The notes beneath the pieces are model-generated. The model saw nothing but the letters and a program-made list of their open reading frames with translations. It searched no databases and was not told the DNA's origin. Positions 254 to 58,502 of a DNA stretch of 64,000 bases are shown piece by piece; the first letter of the stretch is position 1, and every line of letters starts with the position of its first letter. Source of the DNA: Sphyrna mokarran (lineage: Eukaryota); the NCBI GenBank assembly GCA_024679065.1, contig JAGIQG010000029.1:22506001-22570000 (forward strand). The letters are read 5' to 3'. The position numbers and the translations under genes were made by a program.

Positions 254-513
254 ATGTGTTCAAATCTTCACCATGGTAAATTATAAGGTTGAATTCAGAT
301 TCTGTTTGAACCACAGAAACAATAAGCAAAAGTAACTATATGAATCTTTTCGAATGTTGAAGGAATCTGCTCCAATATTTCCCAGTTTCTACTCAACCAG
401 TTTACTTCAGAGAAGAAAATTTGCAATCTTTACTTGGTCTGACATATATGTGACCTTTACCTGCTTTTCTGAAGTGGCCGTGAGGATGGGCTTTGCCACA
501 ATACCAGCATCTT

Positions 514-815
514 GAGTACGATAGCATAGTGATTAGCACTGCTGCCTCACAGCACCAGGGACCTGGGTTCGATTCCCGGCTTGGGTTACTGTCTGTGCGG
601 AGTCTGCATATTCTCCCCGAGTCTGCATGGGTTTTTTCTGTGTGCTCTGATTTCCTCCCACAGTCCAAAAGTTGTGCTGGTTAGCTGCATTGGCCATGAT
701 AAATTCTCTCTCAGTGTACCCAAACAAATGCCAGAGTATGGCGGCGAAGGGGTTTTCACAATAACTTCATTGCAGTTTTCATGTTAGCCTACTTGTGACT
801 AACATATACACTTTA
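514..815 (+). mobile_element. HE1-like tRNA-derived V-SINE, tail class B
   Basis: A-box/B-box head (TTAGCACTGCTGCCTCACAG..GGTTCGATTCC), V-domain, tail TTTTCACAATAACTTCATTGCAG..GCCTACTTGTGAC. Confidence 0.9.
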
Positions 816-1385
816 CGGAAAAAATAAAACATCATGGAGCCTTGAAATTGTAGAATGTTAGAACGTCAGGGTTAATAGCCGAGTTGGAGCAGTTTCAATG
901 ATTATGCAGAATAGTGAGCCTGGGTCATGGGCTCAAAAATGGTTTGGAAACTAGGACATGCTGAAGGTTCCACGATATTTAGCATTCCCCTCAAAGTGGT
1001 GAACAGAGCAGTCATTGTACATTTCGCTTTATGTGAGACACAGTAAAAATAATGAACATGCTCCATGTACAAAAATAAACAAGACTCTCCTGTGTGTTTG
1101 GCAAAGTGTTTTAGAAGGAGCTTCACTCCTCAACTTGATTCTCTCTTTGAAAGTAACTAGAGCATGAGTGCGTGTGCAGGAACGATTCTGCCTGGAGGCA
1201 ACAATTTATTTCTTCTCTCCTCATGCTCTGGATGACTGTTTCACAGCAGAATACATTTTAAGTTGCATTTTTAAAATGCTTCCATGACGGATTCTTTTGT
1301 AACATTATTTCAAGGAAAGTTCGAAAGAATTTTGCAGCTGAACAGTAACTGAGGGGAGTGACATATAACTTTACCGTTAAACTTT

Positions 1386-2100
1386 CATAGAATCCCTATA
1401 GTGTAGAAAGAGGAATGGGAGTGGCCACAATTGACACAATATCCACGGATGCAAACTTAAAATTTCCAACAGTGAAAGCATTTTGTCTACTTTGGCCAAA
1501 CTTCACGCCATAGTAATGTTGTAGTGTTGGTTCATCAAGTTGCACCGACAACAATCCCACCCAGACCCAATCCTGTAACCTCCACTAATCTCCCTGACAC
1601 TAAGGTGCAATTTGGTATGGCCAATCTACCTAAACTACACATAAAATTATCATAGAATTCCTACAATGCAGAAGGAAGCCATTCAGCCCATTGAGCATGC
1701 ACCTACAACAATCCCACTCAGGCCCTATCCCCGTAATCCCACATATTTACCCTGCTAATCCATACTTTTTGGGACACTAAGGGGCAATTCAGCATGGCCA
1801 ATCAACCATCTTTGGGCTGTGGGAGGAAAGCGACGCATCCGGAGAAAACCCATGCAGACATGGGGAGAAAGTGCAAACACCACACAGACAGTCACCCAAG
1901 GCCAGAATTGAAACAGGAAACTAGTGCTGTGAGGCAGAAGTGCTAACCACTGTGCCATCATGCTACCCACCTTTGGTCTGTGTGAAGAGCACACAGGGAG
2001 ACATGCAAACTCCACACAGACAGTGACCCAAAAATGGATTTGAATCTGGGTCCCTGGTGCTGTGAGGCAGTAATGCTAACCATTGTGCCACTATGCTACT
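1386..2100 (-). mobile_element. Nested HE1-like V-SINEs (tail class A): full copy 1651-1968 inside an older, split copy
   Basis: The outer copy breaks at ...ACTACACAT (~1642) and resumes at CTTTGGTCTGTG (~1971). The inner copy is complete from CATAGAATT tail to head. Confidence 0.8.
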
Positions 2101-2661
2101 TATGGCAGTGCTAAGGACTGTAGCTTCATGTAAGGAGTTGCAGAGTGGAATGGTAAATAGAACAGTAAAGAAACAACTCAACCCTAATGTATTTTTATGT
2201 GGAGTTGTATCTTGGCAGCATGTTGTCATCAATTACTTTTAAACTGAAATTTTCTGAAAGGCACACGACAAAAGAAGAATAGAACAAATAACATTGTGCA
2301 CAAGACCAAGCTCAAGTGCAAGATTTTTCCAGAAATCAGCAAAGGTCAATAGCAGGCAGGAAAAGTGCCCCTGAAGCTGCCGATAGCAATGGCAAATCTC
2401 CAAGCATTATAGTGCAACATTCTGTAAAAAAAAACATTGCCAAGCATTGGGTCCCACAATGCACTCCCAAGCCCTGCCCAGGCACCCTCTTGATATGTCT
2501 CTAGAATACACAGTGCAAAAAGAATTCTGAATAGAATTACACTTAGTAAAAACTGTCCACTTCTGAGCAATGAAAATTCTTAAAAGTGCATATTTTTGTC
2601 TCTATTTATTTTAGAATAACCACAACTAACATGATTAATAGGTATACCACCTCCTAAGATA

Positions 2662-2935
2662 GGTGGCACTGTGGCACAGTGGTTAACACTGCACCAAGAA
2701 CCTGGGTTCAATTCCGGCCTCATCAACTGTCCATCTGGAATTTTCACATTTTCCCCATATCTGTGTGGGTTTCCTCCGGATGCTCCGCTTTCCTCCACAC
2801 TCCAAAAATGTGCAGATTAGATGGATTGGCCATGGTAAATTGCCCCTCAGTGTCAGCTGGGTAAATACGTAGGGTTACAGGGATAGGATCTGGGTGGGAT
2901 TGTTGTTGGTGCAGGTTGAAGGGCTGAATAGATGC
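2662..2935 (+). mobile_element. HE1-like V-SINE, tail class A
   Basis: GGTGGCACTGTGGCACAGTGGTTAACACTG head, V-domain, GGGTGGGATTGTTGTTGGTGCAG tail. Confidence 0.85.
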
Positions 2936-3039
2936 TCATTCCAGAGGGTGGAGTCCTCTCTTAGCAGGAGACATGTAGAGGAGGCATGTGGCTTCAGTAC
3001 AGTTCTTTTTATTCATAAATCCTTTTATGTTTCTGTGAA

Positions 3040-4525
3040 AGTGCATCACTACATTATTGTGTCCAATTCTGGGCACCAAACTTTAGGAAGCATGTGAAGG
3101 CCTTAGAGAGGGTGCAGAAAAGAATTATGAGAACACTTCCAAGAATAAGGGTGCTCAGTTACCTAGATAGATTGAAGGAGTTAGTGTGTTGTACTGCAGA
3201 GTGGAAAAGATTGAGCCATTGTGTTCAAAAACATTAGGGCAAAAGAGTCAATAGAGAAAGACTGTTCCCATTGATGGAATGTTAAAGAATCATTGGACAC
3301 CGATTTTAAGTAGTGACGAAAGGACCCTTTTACATTGTAAAGGGTGAGGACCTGGTATGCATCAACAAGAAGTATGGTGGAGGTAGATGAAATTGTAGCC
3401 CCCAAAAGGGAATTGGATAAGTATCTGAAAAAGAAATAAAGGGGATGATTCTCCCTCAAGTGCGGATTTGGTAGGGAAACTGTTCTAAATCACAACTGTT
3501 TTTTTCAGTTCAGCTTCTCACTTGGATCTCCCCATTCTGTGCACTGCAGCGGTCCCAGTAATAAATCTGCGACCCGAAGCAAGACACACAGACCCCCCTC
3601 CCCCAGCAATGGCGATCTCCTATCCCCCTCACCCCGGCAGATACCACCTCTCACTGATGACTTGACCACACCCCCCTACCCCACCTGGCTCAGATCTCCC
3701 CTCCCCAACATTCCCCTATCCACTTCCCCCATGGAGGCAGACCCCCCCCCCCCCCCCCCCCCCCCCACCGTTGGAGACCAACCCTCCCCCAGCCCACCCC
3801 AATGGCTGCCTTCCCTCCATTCCAGACTAGCCCTGTCTGCAGAGTGGCAGTAGAACCCCCTCTCCCACCGATCGCCCAAAGGCCCAATCCACAACAGGCC
3901 CTGACCCCTTGGTACTGCCTGATGCCCCCTGAGCAGTACCAAGGTGTCCCCTGGACATGGGCACTTTGCCCCTTGGTCAGTGCCAGGGAGCACAAGCTGG
4001 AACTGCCAGGGCGTCCAAAACCAGGAGCCATCCCCCACTGCCTGAACCCTCACGGGGGGTGGGGGGGGGGGGGGGGGCGATTGCCTCCTCTTCATCCCAT
4101 TGGGGTGTTCTGCTCATTCCCTGAATATGGAGAACTAGTCTGAACCCCGCCAGAATGAAGTATTCCTGGTAGGGTGGGAGATTGAATCAGGACCTGAAAA
4201 ATCCCGGTAGTTAACAAATATACATATTTAAAACATATTTAAAAAATTTAAATTACTTACTTGCCTTCCCACCAGTTTCCAGTGTGGTCTGACTGGCGAC
4301 TATTCACCGGCTCAGGAAGCTGTGCATGTGTTCCTGGCGCATACTCAAATCCCTGTTCAAAGCCGGAGATACGCATCTCCTACTGCAACCCAACAGAAAA
4401 GTTGTGGATTGAGATGGGACAATCGTGGCAAAAATTGCGGGAAAAGACTGCTATTGCAAAGAGCTGGCACAGATTCTTTGGGCCAAATGGCCTCCTTCTG
4501 AGCTGTCACTATTCTCTGACTCTAG
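3040..4525 (+). mobile_element. Decayed CR1/HER1 LINE 3' end, split by an insertion at ~3441-4428
   Basis: GTCCAATTCTGGGCACCA..GAGAGGGTGCAGAAAAGA..GGATAAGTATCTG before the break. It resumes with GGGCCAAATGGCCTCCTTCTG..ATTCTCTGACTCT. Confidence 0.75.
3441..4428. mobile_element. Non-autonomous DNA transposon (MITE-like) with C-rich/G-rich interior
   Basis: Left end GGGGATGATTCTCCC with degenerate inverted right end GGGACAATCGTGGC. It interrupts a CR1 tail and contains C25 (3742-3766) and G6TG17 (4054-4077). Confidence 0.6.
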
Positions 4526-5140
4526 AATTCTAATAAATGAATACATAAAAAGATTTTATTGGTTCCTGGAAAATTATTATTGTGCTCACCCAACCGAACT
4601 TTCATTATAAAATAATGACCTCAGCAATCCTGAAAGAAATATTTATGGATATTGAGCCCTCTTATAATCAGTCATTTGTCTTGAGAGGGCGTCACGCTCC
4701 AGAACTAAATTCAGTTTCAAACTCTACAAGCATGAAGAATTACCGTCAGATAAATGAGCTAGCTGTAAAACAATGAGCATCCTTTTATGCTCCAGTACAG
4801 GTTCTGATCTCAAAGCAGAACCTTTAAAAGCATACATTGATTTATCTTTTGTGGAAGTGGAACATATCACGGCATCCATTCAGGTGACACTTCCAATCAA
4901 TCTTGTGCAGAACAGTTTTTGAAAGCTGTAAACAATTCTCTTTTTCAACCTTGAACACTCTAGGAGAAAAGTCGGGGGCTCTTTTTCAGCTGAACCGTCC
5001 TTATACCACACAGTCACTTTCCTTGCTTGATCCAGGTGCATCTCATCCTTTTTAAGTTTATTTATCATTGTCTCAAGTCCCACACTGTTGTGCTACAATA
5101 AGAACGTAAATCAAGGTTGTTCACCACGTGAAATATTACA

Positions 5141-5349
5141 TTTAAGTTTATTTATTAGTGTCTCAAGTAGGCTTACTTTAACACTGCAATGAAATTACTG
5201 TGTAAATCCCCCATTCGCCACACTCAGGTGCCTGTTCAGGTATATACCAAGTGAGAATTGAGCATGGCAGTGACCCAAGCTGGGAATCGAGCCCACATCC
5301 CTGGCACTGTGGGGCAACAGTGCTAACCACTATTCCACTGTGCCACCCT
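5141..5349 (-). mobile_element. HE1-like V-SINE, tail class B, internally deleted
   Basis: AAGTTTATTTATTAGTGTCTCAAGTAGGCTTAC tail joined directly to the head region. Confidence 0.85.
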
Positions 5350-5866
5350 GTCTCTGCACTAAGAGACAAGAAAGTTACAGAGCTAATCTTCAACCATCTG
5401 CATCATTGGCATGGCTGGACAATGTTCCAAAGACAAAGAGATGATCATGATGCTGGTATTGACAGAGTCCAGTGACTTATGATGTTATATTTTGCAAAGG
5501 GAATAATTTACTCTTTCAAAATTGTTGATTAAACTCACTGCCTTCCTGAGTTTTGACATTCCATGTTATTTTTGATCTGAATAAAGTATGGGTTTGCTGG
5601 CAATTGACTTCATTGTCACAATGATCTAAATTCAGTGAATATTGAAATTTCAACAATCAGGCAGTGGAGTTTAGGCCCTGCTCGTTACACAATTGGTGAT
5701 GACTGAGAATTTCAAAAGACATGAATGTGAATAGACATGTTTCCATAGTTTTAAACATTTTGTACAATCATTTGCAATTTTTAAGACATTCTGTCTAATC
5801 ATTTCTGATACTTTCATGAACATTTCCTGCTCATTACCTTGGCTGAGTCTATTTTGGTTTCAAATG

Positions 5867-6592
5867 GTTTCTCTCTCTCAATATCATTAAAATGAAAGAG
5901 ATAGTCATTGACTTCAGGAAGCCTACTGGAGGACATGCCTCTGTCTACAGCAATGGGGATGAAGTGGAAAAGGTGGAGAGCTTCAGGTGTCTAGATCATC
6001 AACAACCTATCCTGGTCCCTCCATGCTAATGGTATATATAAAAAAGCCCACCTGCATCTGTACTTTCTCAGGAAGCTAAGGAAATTTGGCACGTCTATTT
6101 CAATTCTCACCAACCTTTAAAGATGCACCAGAGAAAGCATTCTTTCTGTTGGTATCATGGCTTATAGATCCTTGCTCTGCCTAAGACTGCAAGGATCTAC
6201 AAAATGTCATGAATGTAACCTAATCCAACATGCAAACCAGCGTCCTGTCCATTGACTCCATCTACACTTTCCACAGCTTTGGAAAAGCAGCTAGCATAAT
6301 CAAGGACCCCACGCACCAGGAACATTTTCTCTTCCACTTTCTTCTGTAGGGAGTAAGATACAAAAGTCTGAGGACAGTTCCAAGAACAGCTTCTTCCCTG
6401 TTCCTATCAGAGTTTTGAATGGGCCTATCTCAAATTAAGTTGATCTTTCTCTATGCAATAGCTATAACTGTAACACTACATTCTGCACTCTTCCCTTCTT
6501 TATGTATGATAAACTTTGCCTATATATAGTGCTCAAGAAACAATACTTTTCACTGTACATTAATATATGTGACAATAATAAATCAAATCAAA
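5867..6592 (+). mobile_element. Rex1/Babar-clade LINE 3' fragment
   Basis: Decayed frame LSLNIIKMKEIVIDFRK..NGDEVEKVESFR..LYFLRKLRKFG. Ends in TGTGACAATAATAAATCAAATCAAA. Confidence 0.85.
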
Positions 6593-7426
6593 GGATGCTT
6601 AAAGAGTTTGGAGCAATTCTTTGTCCTTTTGAAGGTTTCTTTATTTAAGATTCATCGGTATAATTTTCTCCTATTAAAAATAACATTTTCTCCTATTTTT
6701 AATATGATACTTAAAATGATACTTAAAATATGATATTTAAAATGCACAATGACAATTGATTGGATATTAAATGTTAAACTACTCCATCTTTTCACGTTTG
6801 ATACACGAAGAGATATTCTGATAGAAATACCACATCAATCAAAACAACTCAATGAAATGAACAGAAAGATCATTCTGTCACCTACTGGGCATATATAAAC
6901 ATTGATTTAATCCACATGTGATTCAAATCCATTATATTCAGTTCTATTGAATATCAGTTGCTCCACATTAAACTAAATTGATATTATTCCAGCCTGTGAT
7001 CATCTACATGTTCATTTCAAGGGTATGTCCACAGGAAGATTGATAAGGTTAAGATTTAAAAGTAAGGATCAAATTACTTTTGATTATTGCTGGTTTGTGT
7101 TCTTTAAAGCTGGATACTTCAAAATTGAATCCAACTGAAGATGGTTGGCTACAACACATGAGGTCTGAAAGAACAACTGGCTTCAGCCAACACATTTTCG
7201 CAAGCAGCAGAGATTCCTGTGCTTAACCCACATTCAAAACCAAATATGGCCAGGATGTAACAGACACTTGAACATTTACAACATTTTGCATTATGTTTCC
7301 TAACCCTTTCAAATTTTTGTCATATTTTCCAGGACCGAATAACAACAGAACAAGCCAGCAAAAGAATAATAGCAAAATATCGCAAGAAAGGGAGACCAGC
7401 AAAGAATACGATTCAAATAAGTTTTT

Positions 7427-7543
7427 GTAAGAAGTCTCACAACACCAGGTTAAGTCCAACAGGTTTAACTGTCGGATTTTAACTTGGTGTTGTGAGACTT
7501 CTTATTGTGCTTACCTCAGACCAATGCTGACATTTCCACATCA
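7427..7543. mobile_element. Penelope-like hairpin element, centre deleted
   Basis: TAAGAAGTCTCACAACACCAGGTTAA / TTAACTTGGTGTTGTGAGACTTCTTA inverted arms, same family as 12852-13062. Flanking imperfect direct repeat at 7413-7430 / 7541-7558. Confidence 0.7.
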
Positions 7544-8822
7544 AAGATGTTTTAGTAATCCATGATGTTTAATACATTATATGGTATCTAGTTTCTCCTA
7601 TCCTGGTCATCGTTTTTTTCATTTCTTATCACATGAATTAGAAGTGATATTTTTGGTCAATGCATTTCACTTATGTGCGAGAACAGAAGACTACTGGAGA
7701 CCTTTGCTAATACTAGAAGTATATAAGGTGTGCTAGAGAGTGTGTGAATGATCCAGGAAAAAGTCAATCACAAGATCTGTAATGGAAACAGGCTGTTTCT
7801 AAGGATCACCTTTCGACATTCTAGACAAAGCATACTGCTTGGAAATAATAAGGTTTCTCACAAGAGTAATTCACTGTATCAGGATTGTCAAATACTTCTG
7901 CTGCGCAATGTGCTTTTGGCATCCAGTTGTACGTTGACAGTACCACAGGCAATTATTATTGTGAAACAAGTATTAATATGAACACAATCTGCATCATGCA
8001 TCACTAATTGTACACTCAGAACTAAATTTTACTTTATCAAGTACAATTCTCCTTCTTTGACTGTCATTGGTATTATATGAAAATCTCTATGAATGAAGAC
8101 TGACGAAAGATAAGTGAAGCAGATTAGGAGGGATGGCAGATTGTGGACACTTTAGAACTAATGGATCCACCTGCATTATAAGCTTGGAGAGCGAATTATG
8201 TATTTGATTTTCTTAACTGAGCTCTCTGATTTTGGTGATAGGAAGGAGTCCTCCTCTGAAGGTCTATTTCAAATCTCTGTGTAAAAGGATGGCAGAATTA
8301 TTTGACACACGGCAGATTTCCATTCATCACGAGGCTCAAAATAAGTTTTGATTGTAGTTCCATAAATGTACTGGACTTGCCTGCAGACTTTACATGTTCT
8401 GTTACACTAAGGCATTCACTCAAGGTTGTGAAGCCAGTATCTTAGAAAATGTGGATTGTGAGATGTGTATTAAGAATTAAAAGTTAGAGGGTATAGGATA
8501 GAATGGTGTGTCAGCCTGGAAAAAGCTGGGATGAAATAAAAAAAAGAGTACTTGGAATTTAGAACAGATTCCCATGAAGCTGAATGACCAGAATATCACT
8601 TGCTGTAGGAGACATCTTGAGCAATATGTGAATGGCATAATCTATAAACCAATGAGTATCTTTCTTGCCCTTGGTAAATTTCAATCTGTTTTAGTGGTAT
8701 TAATTCAGGAACAAATATTGAGAAGGACACTGCAGAAATTCCTTTAGATGATGCTCTATAATTTTTTATGTCAGACACTTTGCTGGTCTGGAAATTTCTG
8801 CATTGATAATATTAACAACATT

Positions 8823-9123
8823 CATAGAATCCCTATGTTGCAGGGAAGACCATATGCCCACTGAGTCCCATTCAATCCCATTCAGGCTCTATCCCCATGT
8901 ATTTACCCTGTTTACCTCCTTGATATAGTAAGGGCCAATTTAGCATGGCCAATTAACCTGACACATCTTTGGAGTGTGAGAAGAGGTGCACCTGGAGGAA
9001 ACCCATGCAGACACAGGGAGAATGTACAAACTCCACACAAGCAGTGACACGAGGTCGGGAATCGAACCCGGGTCTCTGATGCTGTGAGGCAGCAGTGCTA
9101 ACTACTGTGCCACTGTGCTGCCC
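8823..9123 (-). mobile_element. HE1-like V-SINE, tail class A
   Basis: Full copy, from CATAGAATCCC tail to GTGCTGCCC head. Confidence 0.9.
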
Positions 9124-9219
9124 AAACACCACCTAAAAAATGGCTGCATTTAAATTGTGTCCCCTGTGGCCATTCGACACACCCTAGTCATCCTTGAAAC
9201 TGTGTCATGGGGTCAACCA

Positions 9220-9360
9220 CATCCACCTGAGGCTAGATGAAACCTTGGTTTAACTTCTCATCTGACAGAAAGCACTTCTGACTAGACAATTCCCCAACTT
9301 TCCATCCTCTGCTGTGAAGCATCAGAGATTCCACTTGAACATAATCCTGAAAGAAGTGAC
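9220..9360 (-). mobile_element. Old Deu-domain SINE remnant (SacSINE1/AmnSINE-like)
   Basis: CATCCACCTGAG..CCTTGGTTTAACTTCTCATCTGA resembles the reverse complement of the GATGAGACGTTAAACCGAGG..CAGGTGGATG motif. Confidence 0.5.
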
Positions 9361-9745
9361 ACTTAAAATGCTCTTTTATCCAACAGCACTTCCAATAATA
9401 AATACTAAAGTTAATGCTTTGACATAGGTCATCTGTGTTTGAAATGTCAGCTCTTTTCTCTTCTGCCGGACCTGCTGAGATTTTCCAGTGTTTTCTCTTT
9501 TGGTAAAAGTTAATGTCATGTTTTCAGCCAGAAATTTAAAACTAAAATCTGCTGGAAAATTGATGAAAATATGGTGCCTACGCATAGCAGTGAATCAGAA
9601 ATATCACGCTTGATGGAAAGCTCCTGTAACTGAATTATCAGTGAACGAGCCATATATGTAAACTTAGTTTTAAGAAAAGAAAAATCTTGGCGCAAAGACT
9701 TGAAAAACGTCACCTCACCCTGGCTTTAAAATTACAAACAGCCTT

Positions 9746-25711: not shown

Positions 25712-26697
25712 AGCAACACCTCTACTTTCTCAAAAGACTAATGAAATTTGGCATGTCAGCTACAACTTAGAACATAGAACATAGAACACTACAGCACAAA
25801 CAGGCCCTTCGGCCCACAAGTTGTGCCGAACACATCAAAACCTACCCAGCCATAGACCTATCTATAACCCCCAATCCCATTGGATCCCATATACTCATCC
25901 AGAAGTCTTTTAAAAGACCCCAGCGAGTTCGCCTCGACCACCACCGACGGCAGCCGATTCCATTCACTCACCACCCTCTGAGTGAAAAACTTTCCCCTAG
26001 CATCCCCTCTGTACTTGCTTCCCTGCACCTTAAATCTGTGCCCTCTCCTCGCGACCATTTCAGCCCTGGGAAATAGTCTCTGAGAGTCCACCCTATCTAT
26101 TCCTCTCAACACCTTGTAAAGCTCTATCAGGTCACCTCTCAACCTTCGTCTCTCCAGGGAGAACAGTCCCAGCTCCCTCAACCTGTCTTCACCAACTTTC
26201 ACCAACTTTTGCAGATGCACTATTGAAAGTATTCTTTCTGGTTTTATCAAGCTTGGTATGGCTCCTGTTTTGCCCAAGACTTCAAGAAACCTAATTCATC
26301 ATGCAAACCAGCCTATCATTCATTGATTCTGCCTATACTTCTTGCTATATTGGCAAAACAGCCAGCATAATTAAGCACCCCATGGCCCCCAAACATTGTC
26401 TCTTCAACCCTTTTCCATTGGGAAAAAGATACAAAAGTCTGATGTCACATACCAACAGACTCAAGAATAGCTTTTTCCCTACTGCCATCAGACTTTTGAA
26501 TGAACCCACCTTGCACTAAATTGATCTTTATTTGCGCCTAGCCATGATTGTAACACTACATTCTGCATTCTCTCCTTCCCTTCTCTGAAAACAATATGCT
26601 TTCTCTATACAGCATGCAAGAAACAATACTTTTCACTGTATCCCAATACATGTGACAATAATAAGTCAAATCAAATCAAATCAAAATCAAATCAAAT
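25712..26697 (+). mobile_element. Rex1/Babar-clade LINE 3' fragment interrupted by a CR1
   Basis: LYFLKRLMKFGMS before the insert. TNFCRCTIESILSG..GKRYKSL..TNRLKNSFFPTAIRLLN after it. (TCAAA)n tail. Confidence 0.85.
25768..26192 (-). mobile_element. Young 5'-truncated CR1/HER1 LINE with intact ORF2 C-terminus
   Basis: Uninterrupted EDRLRELGLFSLERRRLRGDLIELYKV..FFTQRVVSEWNRLP..GGYR*, (TTCTATG)n tail, CpGs retained, CAACTT at both junctions. Confidence 0.93.
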
Positions 26698-26867: not shown

Positions 26868-27246
26868 TCTTCTTGGCATCAATAAGGGGTGAAACCATGA
26901 TCAAGAAGGGCACAAGGCTAGCCCATTGCACTTGATGTAAACTCATGCCTGCAATCGTGGTTTGTGTAAGCTAGGGAATAGAGTAAAGGATCAGGGTAGC
27001 CAATGAGGTTTAGCTCAGGTCCTACCTGAAACAATGTTTCTAAAGCCATCTCAGCCTTTTGCCTAAGATGAAGTGTTAGATCAAGCCGGGGAGGTGGGGG
27101 AGGGGGGGTGGTGGTGGTAAGGGTGCAATGTCTCATCTTGTCAGCTTGCATCTGGTTTGTCTCTCATGTGGGGACCATGATTGGATTTCATTTGAATTGG
27201 CTTTTTTTTGATTAGAAGTACAAAAAGATACCAATTAAAAGAAAAA
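26868..27246 (+). mobile_element. Candidate snRNA-derived SINE (U1-U4-U2 chimera), copy 1
   Basis: U1-like 26885-26955, U4-like 26996-27019, U2-like 27049-27076, then a body and A-rich tail colinear with copy 2 at 56771. Confidence 0.8.
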
Positions 27247-27389
27247 CTTAGGCAGATAGTCTGTGAGTGAAATAGTGTCCAGTATGTGCGTTAAATTATG
27301 AACCAGCCATGGATGGTAATGGAACAGAAATTCATTGTAACTCATTGTCACCTACTGCCTTCACTGAAGATCAGTTTCGACTTTTATTG

Positions 27390-35495: not shown

Positions 35496-35868
35496 ATAGA
35501 ATCATAGAATCTATGGCATGGAGTCAGGTCCTTTGGCGTAAATCAGTCCATGCTGACCAAAAAGCCCATTTAAGCTAATCCCATTTGGCCCATATCCTTC
35601 TAAACCTTTCCTAACTATGTATGCATCCAAATGCCTTTTAAATGTTGTCAATGTCCCTGCCTCAACCACTTCCTCTGACAGTTCATTCCACGTTCCTAAC
35701 ACCCCCTGTGTAAAGAAGTTGCTCCTCAGGTTCCCATTAATTCTTTCCCCACTTAACTTAAACCTGTGTCCTCTAGTTCTCGATTCCCCAACCCTGGGAA
35801 AAAGGCTGAGTGCATTCACCCTATCCATGCCTCTCATGACCTTATACATCTCTATAAGATCATCCCTC
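35496..35868 (-). mobile_element. CR1/HER1 LINE 3' end
   Basis: MRDDLIEMYKVMRGMDRVN..RTRGHRFK..FFTQGV..WNEL and (ATTCTATG)n tail. Confidence 0.9.
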
Positions 35869-36107
35869 ATGAAGACAATTTGCTGCAACCTTTGAAATAT
35901 TTTCTGCTGTTTCTCCTCTGCTGAAATTATAATTCATGCTCCTCTTCTTTCTGAACTTAATTTCTACAAAGTTTTCTTAAATAGCCTTTTGCCTCATACC
36001 TTATGTTTAACTCATCTAGAATGTGTCCTATCTGCACAGTTGCCTTTCTATCTGGGGAAATTGCAAGTTTGGGTTGGGTAAGCGTGCTTTGTTTCAACTT
36101 TCTTGAT

Positions 36108-37848: not shown

Positions 37849-39599
37849 ATATGTATTTGGGAATGAATAGCAATATGTTGTTCTGCCAGTTTAAGGATAA
37901 TGCTGCTGGCTTTATTTAGGTTAACTCTCCCTTTTTAAGCCTTGACAGTATGGGGTAAATTTTCTGACTTCACCCATCATAGGAATCATCATGGGTGGGA
38001 TGGACAATTTAGCAGACCATTAAATGGTCCATTGACTTCAGGTAGGAGTTTCCTGTTCCTGGGACAGGGGGACTCCCCAATGTCATAGTGCCAGTTTTGA
38101 GGGGTGTCCCGACTGTACCTGCATGAAATTCCTGATTTCCACAGCGACCATATAATGGTCCCCCCAACTCTGACTGAAGACCTATGTATCAAACATTTCC
38201 CCATTAGAAGTTCTGTGAGCTCAGATCACGAAGAACTAAAATTAAATTGTCAACCTCATTTGAGGATCCGTTCCTACCGGCTTTCATTATTAGAGTTTAG
38301 ATTTTAAATGAGGTCCAAGGCATGCAACGGCAGTGTGCTGAACCCACTATGCCATCAAATCCCTTAACAATGTTGCCTTAAAGGATTTGATCATTTTCCC
38401 ATACAAAAGCAATTGCTTCAGTATAAACTTGGCACGCCAAAGCCTCAGTCAATTATATCCACCCCATTTATTGCAGTAATCACTGACTTCCACTTTCTGT
38501 TAATGTTGTTTTGTTAGTGACTAAACCTAATAAAACATGCTCAGATAAGAATGGTGATGTAAAAAGTATTTTCATGGACTAATGGACAAAGTGTTGACAA
38601 CATCTTCCATAATACATTAGCTGGGGCTTTTCATGTAATCCATCAGGTGAAGACAGCCTGCTATTGGCCAGCGAAAAATCCTCTGGTCACATCATTTGCC
38701 AATGGGGTTCCCCATTGGATGCATCCCTCGTCGCCATGCAACTTGCAGTGGGAGTGCACTGTCAGCAGGAACAGTAGATCCCACTAGTGTGAACAGGCAG
38801 AAATTTCTGGCCATTGTGTTTGTAGATTTAAATTTGAAATGAGAATACAAATGTTTCACAAAGCAAAATTCCAACATCTATAATGTATGGATGAATCCTT
38901 TAACACTTGATGGTACAGTCAATCACAGGTGCATTTTTTTTTGAATATCAATTTGCCGAAACTTTCTACTCAACAATAGTATGAGGAACATATAGTTGTG
39001 ATTTTATAAATGTTACATCTTTCTTTTAGATGGACACAAGAACCTTAAAGATGACTGTCAAGAGTCACTTGACTGCTTACAACTGCAATGTGGTCAAGCT
39101 TCCAGAAGGCTTCAAGTGAATTGTAAATAGACAGGTGAAGACATTTGAAATTCAATGTAGATTTCTACAAGGAGAAACAGAAATTATATCATGACAAAGT
39201 CAAAGCTGCATTATACATCAGCATGAACATTTCAATGATCATTCCCTCTCCCGACATCCACTGCCCTCCCTGCCACTCCCCCACCAACAGTGATGGGCCA
39301 TGTTTCATATGTTTCATGCCAATCAACTCTAGAACCTCATTGAAACACACTGGCATCTCATTATCAGAGCCCTACAGTAGAATCATAACCCCCATCAAAA
39401 AATCCATCCACACTGGTGTGATATCAGAAAGATCTGAATTATGACTGGCTTCAAAAGGCAAGCATCCAGTGAGCACCCCTCTGAGGGAGCTTGGTCAAAG
39501 GCTTTGCATATTGAGGGGACTGACTCATGATGAACAGCTTTTGACTTGGGGAAGATTAGGCTCTGACTGGGGATGAACAGGTGAACAGCCTATAATTTG

Positions 39600-40218
39600 A
39601 GCGAGACTGAGGTAACACTGGAATGAAGCTGGGGTAACACTAGAATGAGACAGGAATAAGACTGCAGTGGGACTAGAGTAACACAGGAGTGAGACCAAGA
39701 TAACCCTGGAATGAGACCAAGATAATGCTGGAGTGAGGCTGGATTAATACTGGAATGAAATTGGGATAACACTAGAGTGAGACTGGAGTAACACTGGAGT
39801 GAGACCACGATAACACTGGAGTGAGATCAGAGTAAGACTGGAGTAAGATTCTGGTAACACTGGAGCAAGATCAGAGTAATACTGGAGTGACACCATTGGA
39901 GTGAGACCGGGATAACACTGGAATGAAATTCCGGTAACACTGGAGAGAGACTGGGGTAAAACTGGAATGAAACTGGGATAACACTGGAGTGAAACTGGGG
40001 TAACACTGGAATAAGACTGGGGAAACACTAGAGTGAGAATAAAATAACACTAGATTGAGACCAGAGTAACACTAGAGTGAGATTCTAATAATAATGGAGT
40101 GAGATCAGGTGAGGCTGAGGTAACACCAGAGTGAGACCGGAGTAAAACTGGAGTAAGACTGGGGTAACAATGGAATGAGACAGGGCAGCACTGGAGTGAG
40201 ACTGGACTAACACTGGAA
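39600..40218. repeat. 22-bp minisatellite (GAGTGAGACTG-GGGTAACACTG)n, roughly 28 units
   Basis: Direct reading of the degenerate tandem array. Each unit is a dimer of related 11-mers. Confidence 0.9.
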
Positions 40219-51079: not shown

Positions 51080-53157
51080 CATGAACCTGGTTCAATTCAA
51101 ATTTGTTCTGGACAAAGAAATTGACAAATTACAGAAAAAGGTTTTGGATCGAGGGAGAGTAGATTTTAACAAAATTAGGCAGGATCTGGCCAAAGTAGAC
51201 TGGAATGAGTTACTTGCGGGCAAATCTACAGGACAACAGTGTTCAAAGATGAAATAGGGAGGGTACAGGCCCAACATGTTTCCTCTAGGGTAATAGGAAA
51301 ATGTAACAAAGCCAGAGAGCCATGGATGACCAAAAATATTCAGGATACAATGAGAAGGAAAAGAGAGGCTTTTAACAAATATGAGGGAAGTAGGTTTGCA
51401 GATGCTTTAATGAAGTGCAGAAAGTGCAGGATGGAGCTTAAGAAATCAATTAGGAGAGCAAAAAGGGGATATGAGAAAATTCTGGCTGCTAAAAGTAGGG
51501 AAAATCCGAAGATAGTCAATATCAATGAGAAGAGGTTAACCAGGGAAAGAATAGGACCTATCAAAGACCCAGGGGGAAATCTGTGGGTGGAGGCAGAGGA
51601 TATTGGTAGGATTTTAAATGAATATTTCACATCTGTCTTTACCCATGAGAATGAAGAAGTAGTTATGGAATTCAGGGAGAAAGACTCTAGGGAAAATTAT
51701 CATAGGCAGTGACAAAGTATTGGAAGCATTAACGGGCTTAAAACTGGACAAATCTCCAGATCTGGATGAATTGTGACCCAGGCTATTGTGGGAGGCAAGG
51801 GAGGAATTTGCAAGGGTTCTGAACCAAATTTTTAATTCCTCCCTGGCCACTGGGGAAGTGCCAGAAGACTGGAGAAAAGCTAATGTGGTCCACTATTTAA
51901 GAAAGCTTGTAGAGTCAAACCAGGAACTACAGACCAGTGAGTCTCATATCTGTGGTTGGAAAATATTGGAGATCTATCTCCATTTGGAGAAGCATGGTTT
52001 GATCGGGGATAGTCAGGATGGTTTTGTCAGAGGGAAGCCATGCCTAACAAATTTGATTGAATGTTTTGATCATGTAACCAAGTATGTGGATGAGGGTAGT
52101 GCAGTTGATGTAGTTTACATGGATTTCAGCAAAGCCTTTGACAAAGTCCCATATGGGAGACTTATTAAGAAGGATAATGCACATGGCATACAGGGTAATC
52201 TGATAAGGTGGATTCATAATTGGCTTAGCAGTAGAAGACAGAGCGTGGTGATAGACAGCTGCTTTAGTGACTGGAGGCCAGTGACCAGTGGCCACAGGGA
52301 CCTGTTCTGGACTCCCTATTGTTCCTCATTTATATAAATGACATAGATAACTATGTGGGGAGAGTAGGATCAGTATGTTTGCCAATGACACAAAAATTGG
52401 CTGTGTGGTTAACAGTGAGGTTGATTGTCTTGGTTACAGGAAGAAATAGACGGGATGGTCAAGTAGGCAGATAAACGGCAGATGGAATTTAATCCTGAAA
52501 GTGTGAGGTAATGCACTTTGGAAGGAGTAATTTGACAAAGAAGTGTACTGTGAAAGATCTGACACTGGAAAGCTCTGAAGAACAAAGGGACCTTGGTGTA
52601 TTTGTCCATAGACCTCTGAAGGTGGAAAGGTGGGTAAATAGGGTTGTGAAAAAGATATATGGTACACTTGCCTTTATCAATTGAGATACAGATTACAAAA
52701 GCAACAGGTCATGATGAAGTATAAAACTTTGGTGAAGCCAAAGCAGGAATACTGTGTGCAATTCTGGTTGCTACATTATACGAAGGATATGAATGCACTA
52801 GTGGGGGTGCAGAGGAGATTTATAGGATGCTACTTAGGGTGGAACATTGAAGTTATGAAGAGAGGTTGGATAGGCTTGGGTTGTTTTTGTTGAAGCAGAG
52901 AAGACAGAGGGGCGACCTAATTGAGGTATTCAAGATTACGAGGGGCATAGAGAGTGTGGATAGGGAGCAGCTGGTCCCCTTAGTTGAAGGGTCAGTTTTA
53001 AGGGCACACAAGTTAAAAGTGAGGAGTGGGAAGTTTAGGGGGGATTTGAGGAAAAACCTTTCTTACCCAGAGGGTGGTGATGGTCTGGAATGCACTGTCT
53101 GGGAGGCTGGTGGAGGCAAGTTGCCTCACATCCTTTAAAAAGTACCTGGATGAATAT
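51080..53157 (+). mobile_element. CR1/HER1 LINE ORF2 pseudogene fragment (~2.1 kb)
   Basis: PWMTKNI..LNEYFTSVFT..TGEVPEDWRKANV..DSQDGFVRGKPCLTNL..VDVVYMDFSKAFDKVP..FANDTK..EYCVQFW..RGDLIEVFKI, with many stops and frameshifts. Confidence 0.95.
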
Positions 53158-56734: not shown

Positions 56735-56976
56735 ATCATCTTGATTTTACTGTAGTTTGTATGCCTCGGTATACTTACCTGGCTGGGGTGAAACTACGAT
56801 CAAGCAGGGGGTTGATGTTAGCTTATTGTACAGAGGAGTGTGCTAATGCCTGCAGTCATGGTTTTTCTCAGCTACAGTAGAATTAAAGATCATAGTAGCT
56901 AAAGACGTTAAACCAAGGCTATACTTGATGCAACTTTTTAAAGCCACCTCGGCCTTTTGGCTAAGATAAAGCGGTG

Positions 56977-57319
56977 GAATCATAGAAAACCTACAGTACA
57001 GAATGAGGCCATTCAGCCCATCGAGTCTGCACTGGCAACAATCCTACCCCAGGCCCTATCCCCACAACTCCTCACATTTACTTCGCTTATCCCTCTGACC
57101 TACACATTCCAGGGCACTAAGGAGCAAGTTAGCATGATCAATCGACCTAACTCGCATATCTTTGGATTGTGGGAGGAAACTGGAGGACACAGAGGAAACC
57201 CATGCCAACATGAGGAGAATGTACAAACTCCACACAGACAGTGACGCAAGCCAGGAATTGAATCCAGGTCCTGGAGCTGTGAGGCAGTGGTGGTAACGAC
57301 TGTGCCACTGTGTCACCCC
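56977..57319 (-). mobile_element. HE1-like V-SINE, tail class A
   Basis: Full copy inserted just after the U2-like segment. Confidence 0.92.
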
Positions 57320-57477
57320 ACTAGATAACTCTTGGAGTGGGATGCAATGTCTCATCCTCTTAGCTTGGATCTTGTTTGATCAAGCCCAAGATGGGATGTA
57401 ATGTCTTGTCCTATAAGCTTAGATTTTAGTTGTCCCTCATGCGGGGACCATGATTGGACTTAAATTGAATTAAATAA

Positions 57478-58502
57478 AATAGAACAAAGAACAAAACAGG
57501 CCCTTCGGCCAAACGAGCCCACGCCGCCACCCCGATGTTCCCACCTCTACCCGTGATCCCTGTCCATGTTTATAGATCTATGGATTAAAAACCAAATTTG
57601 AGACAATTTAGGAGAATTTGTTTTGCCAATTAGCCTAAGAGCACATTTTTGGAATGTGGGAGAAAACCGGAGCACCCGGAGAAAATCCACGCAAGCATGA
57701 GGAGAATGCGCAAACTCTCACAGACACAGGCCCAAATCCATGTATCTGCACAGCACAGCGATAGTCACTGAGCTGTCGTGTTGCCAATCAAATGGTCCAG
57801 GTCAAGCGTACACTAATGATGTGAAGCACTAGGATACACTCGAAAAAAAAATCCAAGAGCAGCCCTCTCACGACCCATCGCGTGTATGCCCCTTGTTAGA
57901 CAACAAGGTGGACCAAAGCACCTGTAGGATAAAAACAAGTACATCAATATCATCGTCGATTTACACACTTTCCAGGGACTGCCAAGGCTCATGGTTCCTA
58001 TTTCAAATCAGTTTTCTATACCCCTCCATTCCCATTCTGTTCATGTGCCCATCTAAGTATTTCTTAAATAACTCCAGAGTGCCTGCTTCCACCACTTTAC
58101 TTGGCAGCGCACCACCTTCTGTGTGAAAAAACTCCCTCTAACATCCAAATTATATCTTACCCCTCTCACCCTAAGCCTGTGACCCCTCGTGCTATTTGAG
58201 TCCATCCTAGAAAAAAGCTTAACCCTGTTTACTCTATCTATACCCCTCATAATCTTGTACACCTCTATTATTTCTCCTCTAAATCTATGTCTTTCTAAGG
58301 AAAACAGCCCCAATTTGCCTAATCTCTCCTCATAACTCAGACCTTCCATACCAGGCAGCATCCTGGTAAACCTTCTCTGCATTCTCTCCAGACTCTCCAC
58401 GTCCTTTCAGTAGTAAGGCGACCAGAACTGGACGCAGTATTCCAAATGAGGTCTAATCAACATTTTATACAACTGCAACATTAAAGGCCAGCTCTTGTAC
58501 TA
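57478..58502 (-). mobile_element. CR1 LINE 3' end whose long 3' UTR contains a divergent V-SINE (57480-57786)
   Basis: LEYCVQFWSP..LERMQRRFTRMLPGM..FFTQKVV, then ~230 bp of unique sequence, a V-SINE body, and a CR1-type GGCCGAAGGGCCTG..(TTCTTTG)n tail. Confidence 0.8.

Follow-up and report, generated by a model that had tools for sequence, protein, structure and literature searches.

The window analysed here, a 64,000-nt stretch of the genome of the shark Sphyrna mokarran, contains two sequences in which pieces of three spliceosomal snRNAs, U1, U4 and U2, follow one another in the same order. The question is whether they belong to a retroposon family built from snRNAs and, if so, how such an element could have been transcribed and copied. 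The snRNA genes of this same genome, located by Rfam searches, served as references, and a sequence check found the U1, U4 and U2 segments listed in the first-pass annotation at their proposed positions. Copy 1 (forward strand) begins at 26885 with U1 nt 14, rather than at 26868 as first proposed. Its head (26885..26955) corresponds to nt 14-95 of the main host U1 class, 5′-truncated by 13 nt and lacking nt 39-49 of the host U1 (an 11-nt deletion). It matches host U1 gene L036 at 59/82 positions (shuffle p 0.002), and the previously noticed match over nt 14-38 reaches 24/25. The loss had first been placed within about nt 44-55; two of the three supposed shared departures from U1, T19 and A22, are the sequence of the host U1 itself. 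The linker that follows (26956..26995), common to subfamily B (see below), is read as the remnant of an older short U1 head, composed of the 3′ arm of stem-loop I and a duplicate of the 5′ arm that has since decayed; taken alone, its U1 origin is not significant (p 0.73).

The next segment (26996..27019) matches U4 nt 23-46 of the 5′ stem-loop (kink-turn) at 20/24 positions (host U4 L047, p 0.006). The 17-nt match claimed there as exact is 16/17 against the host U4 gene. A decayed piece at 27031..27045 is likely the 3′ Sm-site region of U4 (nt 116-129; 18/24 in the family majority sequence); for the majority, p is 0.25 unconstrained and 0.007 if the linker alone is tested. U2 nt 7-34 then occupies 27049..27076, with 25/28 matches to host U2 L039 (p 0.002), the figure originally given. 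By sequence comparison, 27077..27122 is the spacer of a 55-nt unit, with a local G-rich expansion; the unit is single in copy 1 and present twice in most subfamily A copies. The "body" (27123..27193), whose snRNA origin had gone unnoticed at first, corresponds to U2 nt 31-102 (49/72, p 0.002). Comparison with the family identifies the remainder (27194..27246) as a T run, the subfamily A tail and an A-rich end, the ATTAAA/AATAAA of the family being deleted in this copy. The sequences at 26872-26884 and 27247-27257 are weak candidates for the remains of a target duplication that flanked copy 1; within them, orthologues differ at 26874 and 27253.

Copy 2, on the same strand, is colinear with copy 1 from 56771 as had been noted, but it is split by a later insertion of about 345 nt. 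Its 5′ part (56771..56978) contains U1 from nt 1, U4 and U2 nt 7-34, and is 164/206 identical to the subfamily A majority; the 3′ part (57322..57487) has the 55-nt unit twice, together with U2 stem IIb, and shows 142/165 identities. The inserted sequence (56979..57321), by its repeat-family membership, is another, HE1-like SINE that is abundant in the window. The two parts are 72% and 77% identical to copy 1, the flanks are unrelated, and both copies belong to subfamily A. A scan of the window with Rfam models (cmscan) gave no match to copy 1 at E ≤ 1 and a single match to copy 2, to U1 (E = 0.054). Among less decayed copies at 8 loci, U1 was detected with E values down to 1.6e-7 and U2 with E values of 1.1-1.9, and U4 was never reported.

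The rest of the window contains at least 17 copies of the abundant SINE and broken LINE reverse transcriptase fragments at 25858-26295, 35511-35933, 51209-52337 and 58053-58406. A tandem array with a 22-nt period (11-nt sub-period) lies at 39554-40196. A palindromic element at 7431-7501 scores against mir-3015 in either orientation without reaching the gathering threshold; similar sequence recurs at other loci, so it is probably a small inverted-repeat element. No long host-gene ORF was seen in the 64-kb window.

A DNA search of the genome (2.77 Gb) returned 2,091 candidates, and all 40 of those scored matched the family, on many contigs. Exact matches to a 21-nt motif spanning the U4/U2 junction number 89 genome-wide (control 0). 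Since only 2 of the 26 tail-selected copies that span the junction retain this exact motif, scaling gives about 1,200 U1-U4-U2 copies (350-9,400), that is, of the order of 1,000-2,000. The form is therefore moderate in number, and the two copies in 64 kb, first read as a sign of high copy number, are a local excess. In 40 random 10-kb stretches one family copy was found, of subfamily C, from which the whole group (A-D) is estimated at some thousands of copies (175-39,000). The majority of subfamily A, built from 30 copies, matches the host snRNAs more closely than the window copy does: 79/95 over U1 nt 1-95, 23/25 over U4 nt 23-47 (p 0.002) and 26/28 over U2 nt 7-34, with a body matching U2 nt 23-103 at 55/81 positions before AATAAA/ATTAAA and the A tail. 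The consensus thus gains snRNA identity rather than losing it, as expected if the snRNA assignment is right. The same junctions are found in all copies, and the flanks of family copies share generic repeats only, out of register; no common target element was found in them. Descent from one master, as first suggested, is supported by these constant junctions, and copies throughout the genome with unrelated flanks speak against a duplication confined to the two window loci. The element in the window is a copy of a real, dispersed retroposon family, and the evidence supports the description of the U1-U4-U2 family as a single-master, A-tailed, SINEU-like family.

The family is now old. In a set of 82 A/B copies, which were selected because they were best or motif matches and from which duplicate loci were removed, divergence from the respective majority ranges from 8 to 20% (means 13-15%). 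No young copies were found among those examined; the full-length copy closest to its majority differs by 8% in A/B and by 5.5% in D. In three other organisms, contigs extend from the unique 5′ flank into copy 1 (about 90% identity), and in two of the three, contigs also join its 3′ end to the flank, so that the insertion is older than these splits. Many contigs of all four sequencing runs cover the element, though their summed depth is not a measure of copy number.

Four subfamilies can be distinguished, with majority lengths of 219-388 nt. Subfamily C (219 nt; 2,790 candidates, 10.7% mean divergence) consists of U2 only, aligning to nt 5-154. Subfamily D (301 nt; 1,701 candidates, 8.7% divergence) has a U2 head followed by a U4-U2 body. 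Its head, U2 nt 1-37, is identical to U2 at 33/33 positions over nt 5-37, and its U4 piece, which alone gives 15/18 (p 0.10), is named U4 by homology with A/B. Subfamily B (273 nt) comprises U1 nt 1-52, a 21-nt duplicate that is 20/21 identical to the head, U4, U2, AATAAA and an A tail; its head matches a second host U1 class on contig C994 at 51/52 positions. In subfamily A (321-388 nt), main-class U1 nt 1-95 precedes a B-like body, and most copies have the 55-nt duplication and a new tail. One locus, L205, combines U4 with the long tail of C and is thus an intermediate. We infer from these comparisons the order C, then the U4 piece, then different heads. Pieces of snRNA have been added at the 5′ end repeatedly: the U2 head of D, the two U1 classes of A and B, and double heads. 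Loci L141, L150, L063, L151 and L152 are those with double heads or 40-nt head arrays. Four long-headed rows were left out of the B majority, and L205 out of the C majority.

The second U1 class (7 copies; G000:C994:6,007,676-6,174,937, loci L262, L293, L297, L300, L308 and L309) shares 88-90% identity with the main class; its stem-loop I differs yet is still paired. This class is the donor of the B head. Compensatory changes kept by selection in the U1 stem of B were considered and rejected, the stem being that of this host class. The 40-nt stem-loop I unit of the B head has grown into a minisatellite at L152:2022-2662 (11 HMM hits) and likewise at L063 and L151. The origin of the tail from U2 nt 115-123 was not supported (p 0.12-0.7); subfamily C shows the tail lying further 3′, joined in A/B by a deletion.

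The copies bear several marks of retroposition. Nearly all junction-selected copies (28/30) start within the first 31 nt. All 30 tail-selected loci are family copies, of which 7, starting at position 49 or beyond, are clearly the 5′-truncated copies that had been looked for. An autonomous LINE sharing the 3′ 60 nt was also sought; none of the 30 tail loci, which stand for 30 of 31 tail matches, is a LINE. Of 74 A/B copies in which a 3′ end is present, 46 have the signal AATAAA or ATTAAA ahead of the A-rich end, and the element contains internal T5 and T6 runs. Direct repeats at the element ends, the expected target site duplications (TSDs), are clearly in excess in D (10/24 against 9.1% of mismatched pairs, p 2e-5) and C (7/23 against 5.1%, p 1e-4). 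The excess is weak in A/B (10/66 against 6.4%, p 0.009; rank test p 0.15). Copies with repeated heads or tandem neighbours were left out of the TSD testing, 9 from this A/B test and 5 from another. At about 10 of 157 loci, read by eye, another family copy adjoins head to tail. Given the A tails, the 5′ truncation, the TSDs and a tail that is not LINE-derived, recognition probably took place via poly(A).

In a U2 gene cluster, a D body splits a U2 gene (G000:C949:17,389,775-17,390,226). The order is promoter-side homology, U2 nt 4-37 exact, the D body, an A run, U2 nt 40-191 (91%) and the 3′ flank; the promoter-side homology scores 90, against maxima of 45 for shuffled sequences and 35 for 50 dispersed C/D copies. 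Genome-wide, the exact pattern of an A run directly before U2 nt 40 occurs at 7 places (control 0), of which 3 are D elements, 3 are tails of one LINE group and 1 has no element upstream. The D head ends at the U2 target base of this LINE, and both insert at U2 nt 38/39. According to PMC4640811, the U2 sequence downstream of Utopia begins at nt 39, and Keno has an identical 3′ flank. Together, the position of D and the LINE at the Keno/Utopia site and the D body in a U2 gene that retains its promoter region suggest a Keno-like partner and the capture of a promoter.

The putative partner LINE (1,535 candidates), probably Tx1-like, has a ZCCHC3-like ORF1, RVT_1 and zf-RVT, and has unnamed homologues in sharks; on its broken fragments, Pfam recognised no endonuclease. 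Among its 30 best loci, 5 hold a D element, in 3 cases directly behind the tail (0/120 random windows, p 2.4e-4). U2 directly follows the tail in 1 of the 30 best copies, the other 29 lying elsewhere, and the site specificity of the LINE is therefore loose. Three LINE tail loci are followed by U2 from nt 38/39, and a fourth by U2 from nt 46 on. Counted from the SINE side with duplicate loci removed, there is no enrichment of the LINE (A/B 2/107, C 1/25, D 2/25, random 1/120), and an association with A/B was accordingly rejected. No snRNA head was present on one near-full copy of the LINE. Mobilisation of Tx1 type, as first proposed, is thus supported in D by the U2 site and the LINE loci, but the U1-headed form lacks such enrichment.

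Several other loci concern the same site. At L324 and L330, a U2 head, D body and A run are followed by a U2 remainder ending at nt 126 or 149, with no U2 promoter. These two of the three loci at which D is followed by U2 may be retrocopies of read-through transcripts from a master lying in a U2 gene, or D may have inserted into U2 pseudogenes there. Tandem LINE 3′ ends at L317, L321 and L334 have approximately U2 nt 38-57 between them, and at L327:1876-2161 U2 nt 1-57 precedes a LINE 3′ piece, arrangements that fit a 20-nt target duplication. The Tx1-like LINE at L314:3572-8475 is nearly complete but broken, and its tail is followed by a D; a PR/SET-domain exon (PF21549, E 6e-24) precedes this LINE by 2 kb. 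Three D copies lie within 9 kb at L313, and one (L252:9338-9618) is situated in the U4 cluster, where it separates two U4 genes and has the opposite orientation. A further D copy near the U2 cluster (L311:3399-3671) has a direct repeat of about 150 nt, now diverged, on its two sides. It was rejected as a second D inside a U2 promoter: only 24 nt resemble the promoter-proximal part of the split U2 gene, which is not significant against the intact promoter.

The sequence comparisons make it probable that this is a non-coding retroposon of U1, U4 and U2 pieces, likely transcribed by Pol II from host snRNA promoters and likely copied by a U2-targeting LINE of Tx1 type. A rearranged U2 with an A tail spread as C; in front of it were placed a U4 piece and, probably later, different heads: nt 1-37 of U2 in D, nt 1-52 of U1 class 2 in B, and nt 1-95 of U1 class 1 in A. 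The A-tailed RNAs were most likely copied by the LINE via poly(A) recognition, D and the Tx1-like LINE both inserting at U2 nt 38/39. Such an insertion would put the body behind the U2 promoter, and the transcript would gain a U2 head and become a new master: starting at U2 +1, it would carry nt 1-37 as its head and end at the poly(A) signal of the element. One such locus would survive in the U2 cluster, although the D elements in U2 genes could also be later insertions rather than masters. More speculatively, A and B may have acquired their U1 heads through comparable insertions into U1 genes or through template jumping, and would then be driven by U1 promoters. For the U1-headed form, both the link to the Keno-like LINE and promoter capture in U1 genes are suggested by analogy with D. 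No A/B copy was found inside a U1 gene in 260 kb of two U1 clusters and one 10-kb stretch, and none of 112 A/B copies has a U1 remainder behind or a U1 promoter ahead, the two top scores being other repeats by eye. The external snRNA-type promoter first postulated has thus a counterpart in the D body with its promoter region in a U2 gene, but not in U1 genes for A/B. Template jumping is therefore a live rival.

Under that alternative, which we consider rather unlikely, the family is the same, but the heads came from jumps of the reverse transcriptase onto U1, U2 and U4 RNA, and the masters were read from flanking promoters. The model has been argued for crocodilian SINEU by Kojima (PMC4494074). 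The missing A/B copy in a U1 gene agrees with it, as do heads that derive from two U1 classes and differ in their end points, the double heads and 40-nt head arrays, and a U4 piece that is internal rather than a 5′ end. It leaves unexplained why the D head stops at the U2 target base of the LINE and why three D elements are followed by U2 from nt 38/39 onward. Among 88 near-full U1-headed copies (7 with repeated heads or tandem neighbours having been removed), no fewer than 20 extend to U1 nt 2. Initiation at an snRNA start would produce this, but so would a template jump that used full U1 RNA.

Transcription by Pol III, from an internal promoter that arose by chance in U2 and U4 sequence, is very improbable. 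A motif scan of the majority sequences does find matches resembling an A box in both the U4 and the U2 piece, and one resembling a B box in every 55-nt unit. The nearest boxes start only 19 nt apart, and all boxes are located 75-200 nt downstream of the U1 5′ end, the point from which copies start; the internal T5 and T6 runs and the poly(A) signal ahead of the tail also argue against it. The heads are U1 or U2, and no tRNA, 5S or 7SL match was reported by Rfam in the window copies or at the 8 less decayed loci, in agreement with the original remark that a Pol III A/B-box head is absent. We give equally little credence to retrocopies of a functional host gene for a chimeric RNA, an snRNA variant rather than a selfish element. 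The majorities fold better than shuffled sequences (z -4.3 for B, -5.7 for A), and U1 stem-loop I and the U4 stem-loop are kept. Against a host gene, no intact, undiverged source exists among the copies examined (the closest being those at 8% in A/B and 5.5% in D), the changed stem of the B head was inherited from a host U1 class, and at least 4 structurally different masters followed one another. Independent snRNA pseudogenes, or a segmental duplication, can practically be dismissed: true U1 pseudogenes with a similar deletion do exist (L185, L186), but the 89 exact U4/U2 junctions against 0 in the control, the constancy of the junctions and the unrelated flanks are incompatible with such an origin.

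The closest published relatives of this retroposon are SINEU-1, -2 and -3 of crocodilians, whose heads derive from U1 or U2 (Kojima 2015, PMC4494074). As far as the available text describes them, SINEU-2 combines U1 and U2, SINEU-3 is a rearranged U2, none is known outside crocodilians, the partner was inferred to be Tx1 from common targets in Mariner-N4_AMi, and transcription was left as an open question. The shark family shares with these descriptions a length below 500 nt, a poly(A) tail, internal oligo-T, repeated head addition, tandem insertions and the lack of a LINE with the same tail, and in D, at least, common targets likewise suggest a Tx1 partner; subfamily C resembles SINEU-3 in being a rearranged U2. 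It thus appears to fall within the structural definition of SINEU, the comparison being with the published description rather than with the sequences. It differs in carrying U4, which the available SINEU description does not include, in a partner found at the U2 gene site instead of Mariner-N4_AMi, and in having a D body in a U2 gene with its promoter region where that paper lists the promoter as open. The shark LINE and D, followed by U2 from nt 38/39, resemble Keno (Tx1) and Utopia, and LINE ends with approximately U2 nt 38-57 resemble the 20-bp duplications of reptile Utopia (PMC4640811); the shark LINE, with U2 after 1 of its 30 best copies, differs in its weak specificity. In the literature searched we found no non-autonomous, snRNA-built passenger of Keno. 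U6-L1 and other chimeric retrocopies, in which an snRNA piece precedes another retrotranscript (PMC4494074), are one-off events, whereas the shark family amplified fixed junctions from masters. Unlike Pol III SINEs with tRNA, 5S or 7SL heads, it has U1 or U2 heads and no 5′-proximal A/B boxes. No shark or U4-bearing SINEU was found in the literature searched, including the available parts of PMC5381603 and PMC4758252, although Repbase, Dfam or supplementary repeat libraries may hold the family.

Copies in reverse orientation would contain the complement of the U1 5′ end, that is, a consensus splice donor. Faster decay of this reversed donor was rejected (9/20 against 34% expected, p 0.22), with no sign of selection.

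We tentatively suggest, at slightly less than an even chance, that these elements form a new, independently arisen group of snRNA-mosaic SINEs in sharks, the first with U4, which rode on a U2-targeting, Keno-like LINE and gained masters by landing in snRNA genes, from which they took over the Pol II promoter and, as a new head, the 5′ end. If true, this would explain how promoterless SINEU are transcribed and why heads keep being gained. The D body at the LINE target base in a U2 gene offers a concrete, testable route to a promoter and a head. In practical terms, the family is probably unmasked in annotation and swells the calls of snRNA pseudogenes, and insertions common to several organisms are usable as phylogenetic markers. 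With SINEU known so far from a single reptile group, a second set that carries U4 and comes from cartilaginous fish would mean that SINEs of Pol II type built from snRNAs arise repeatedly.
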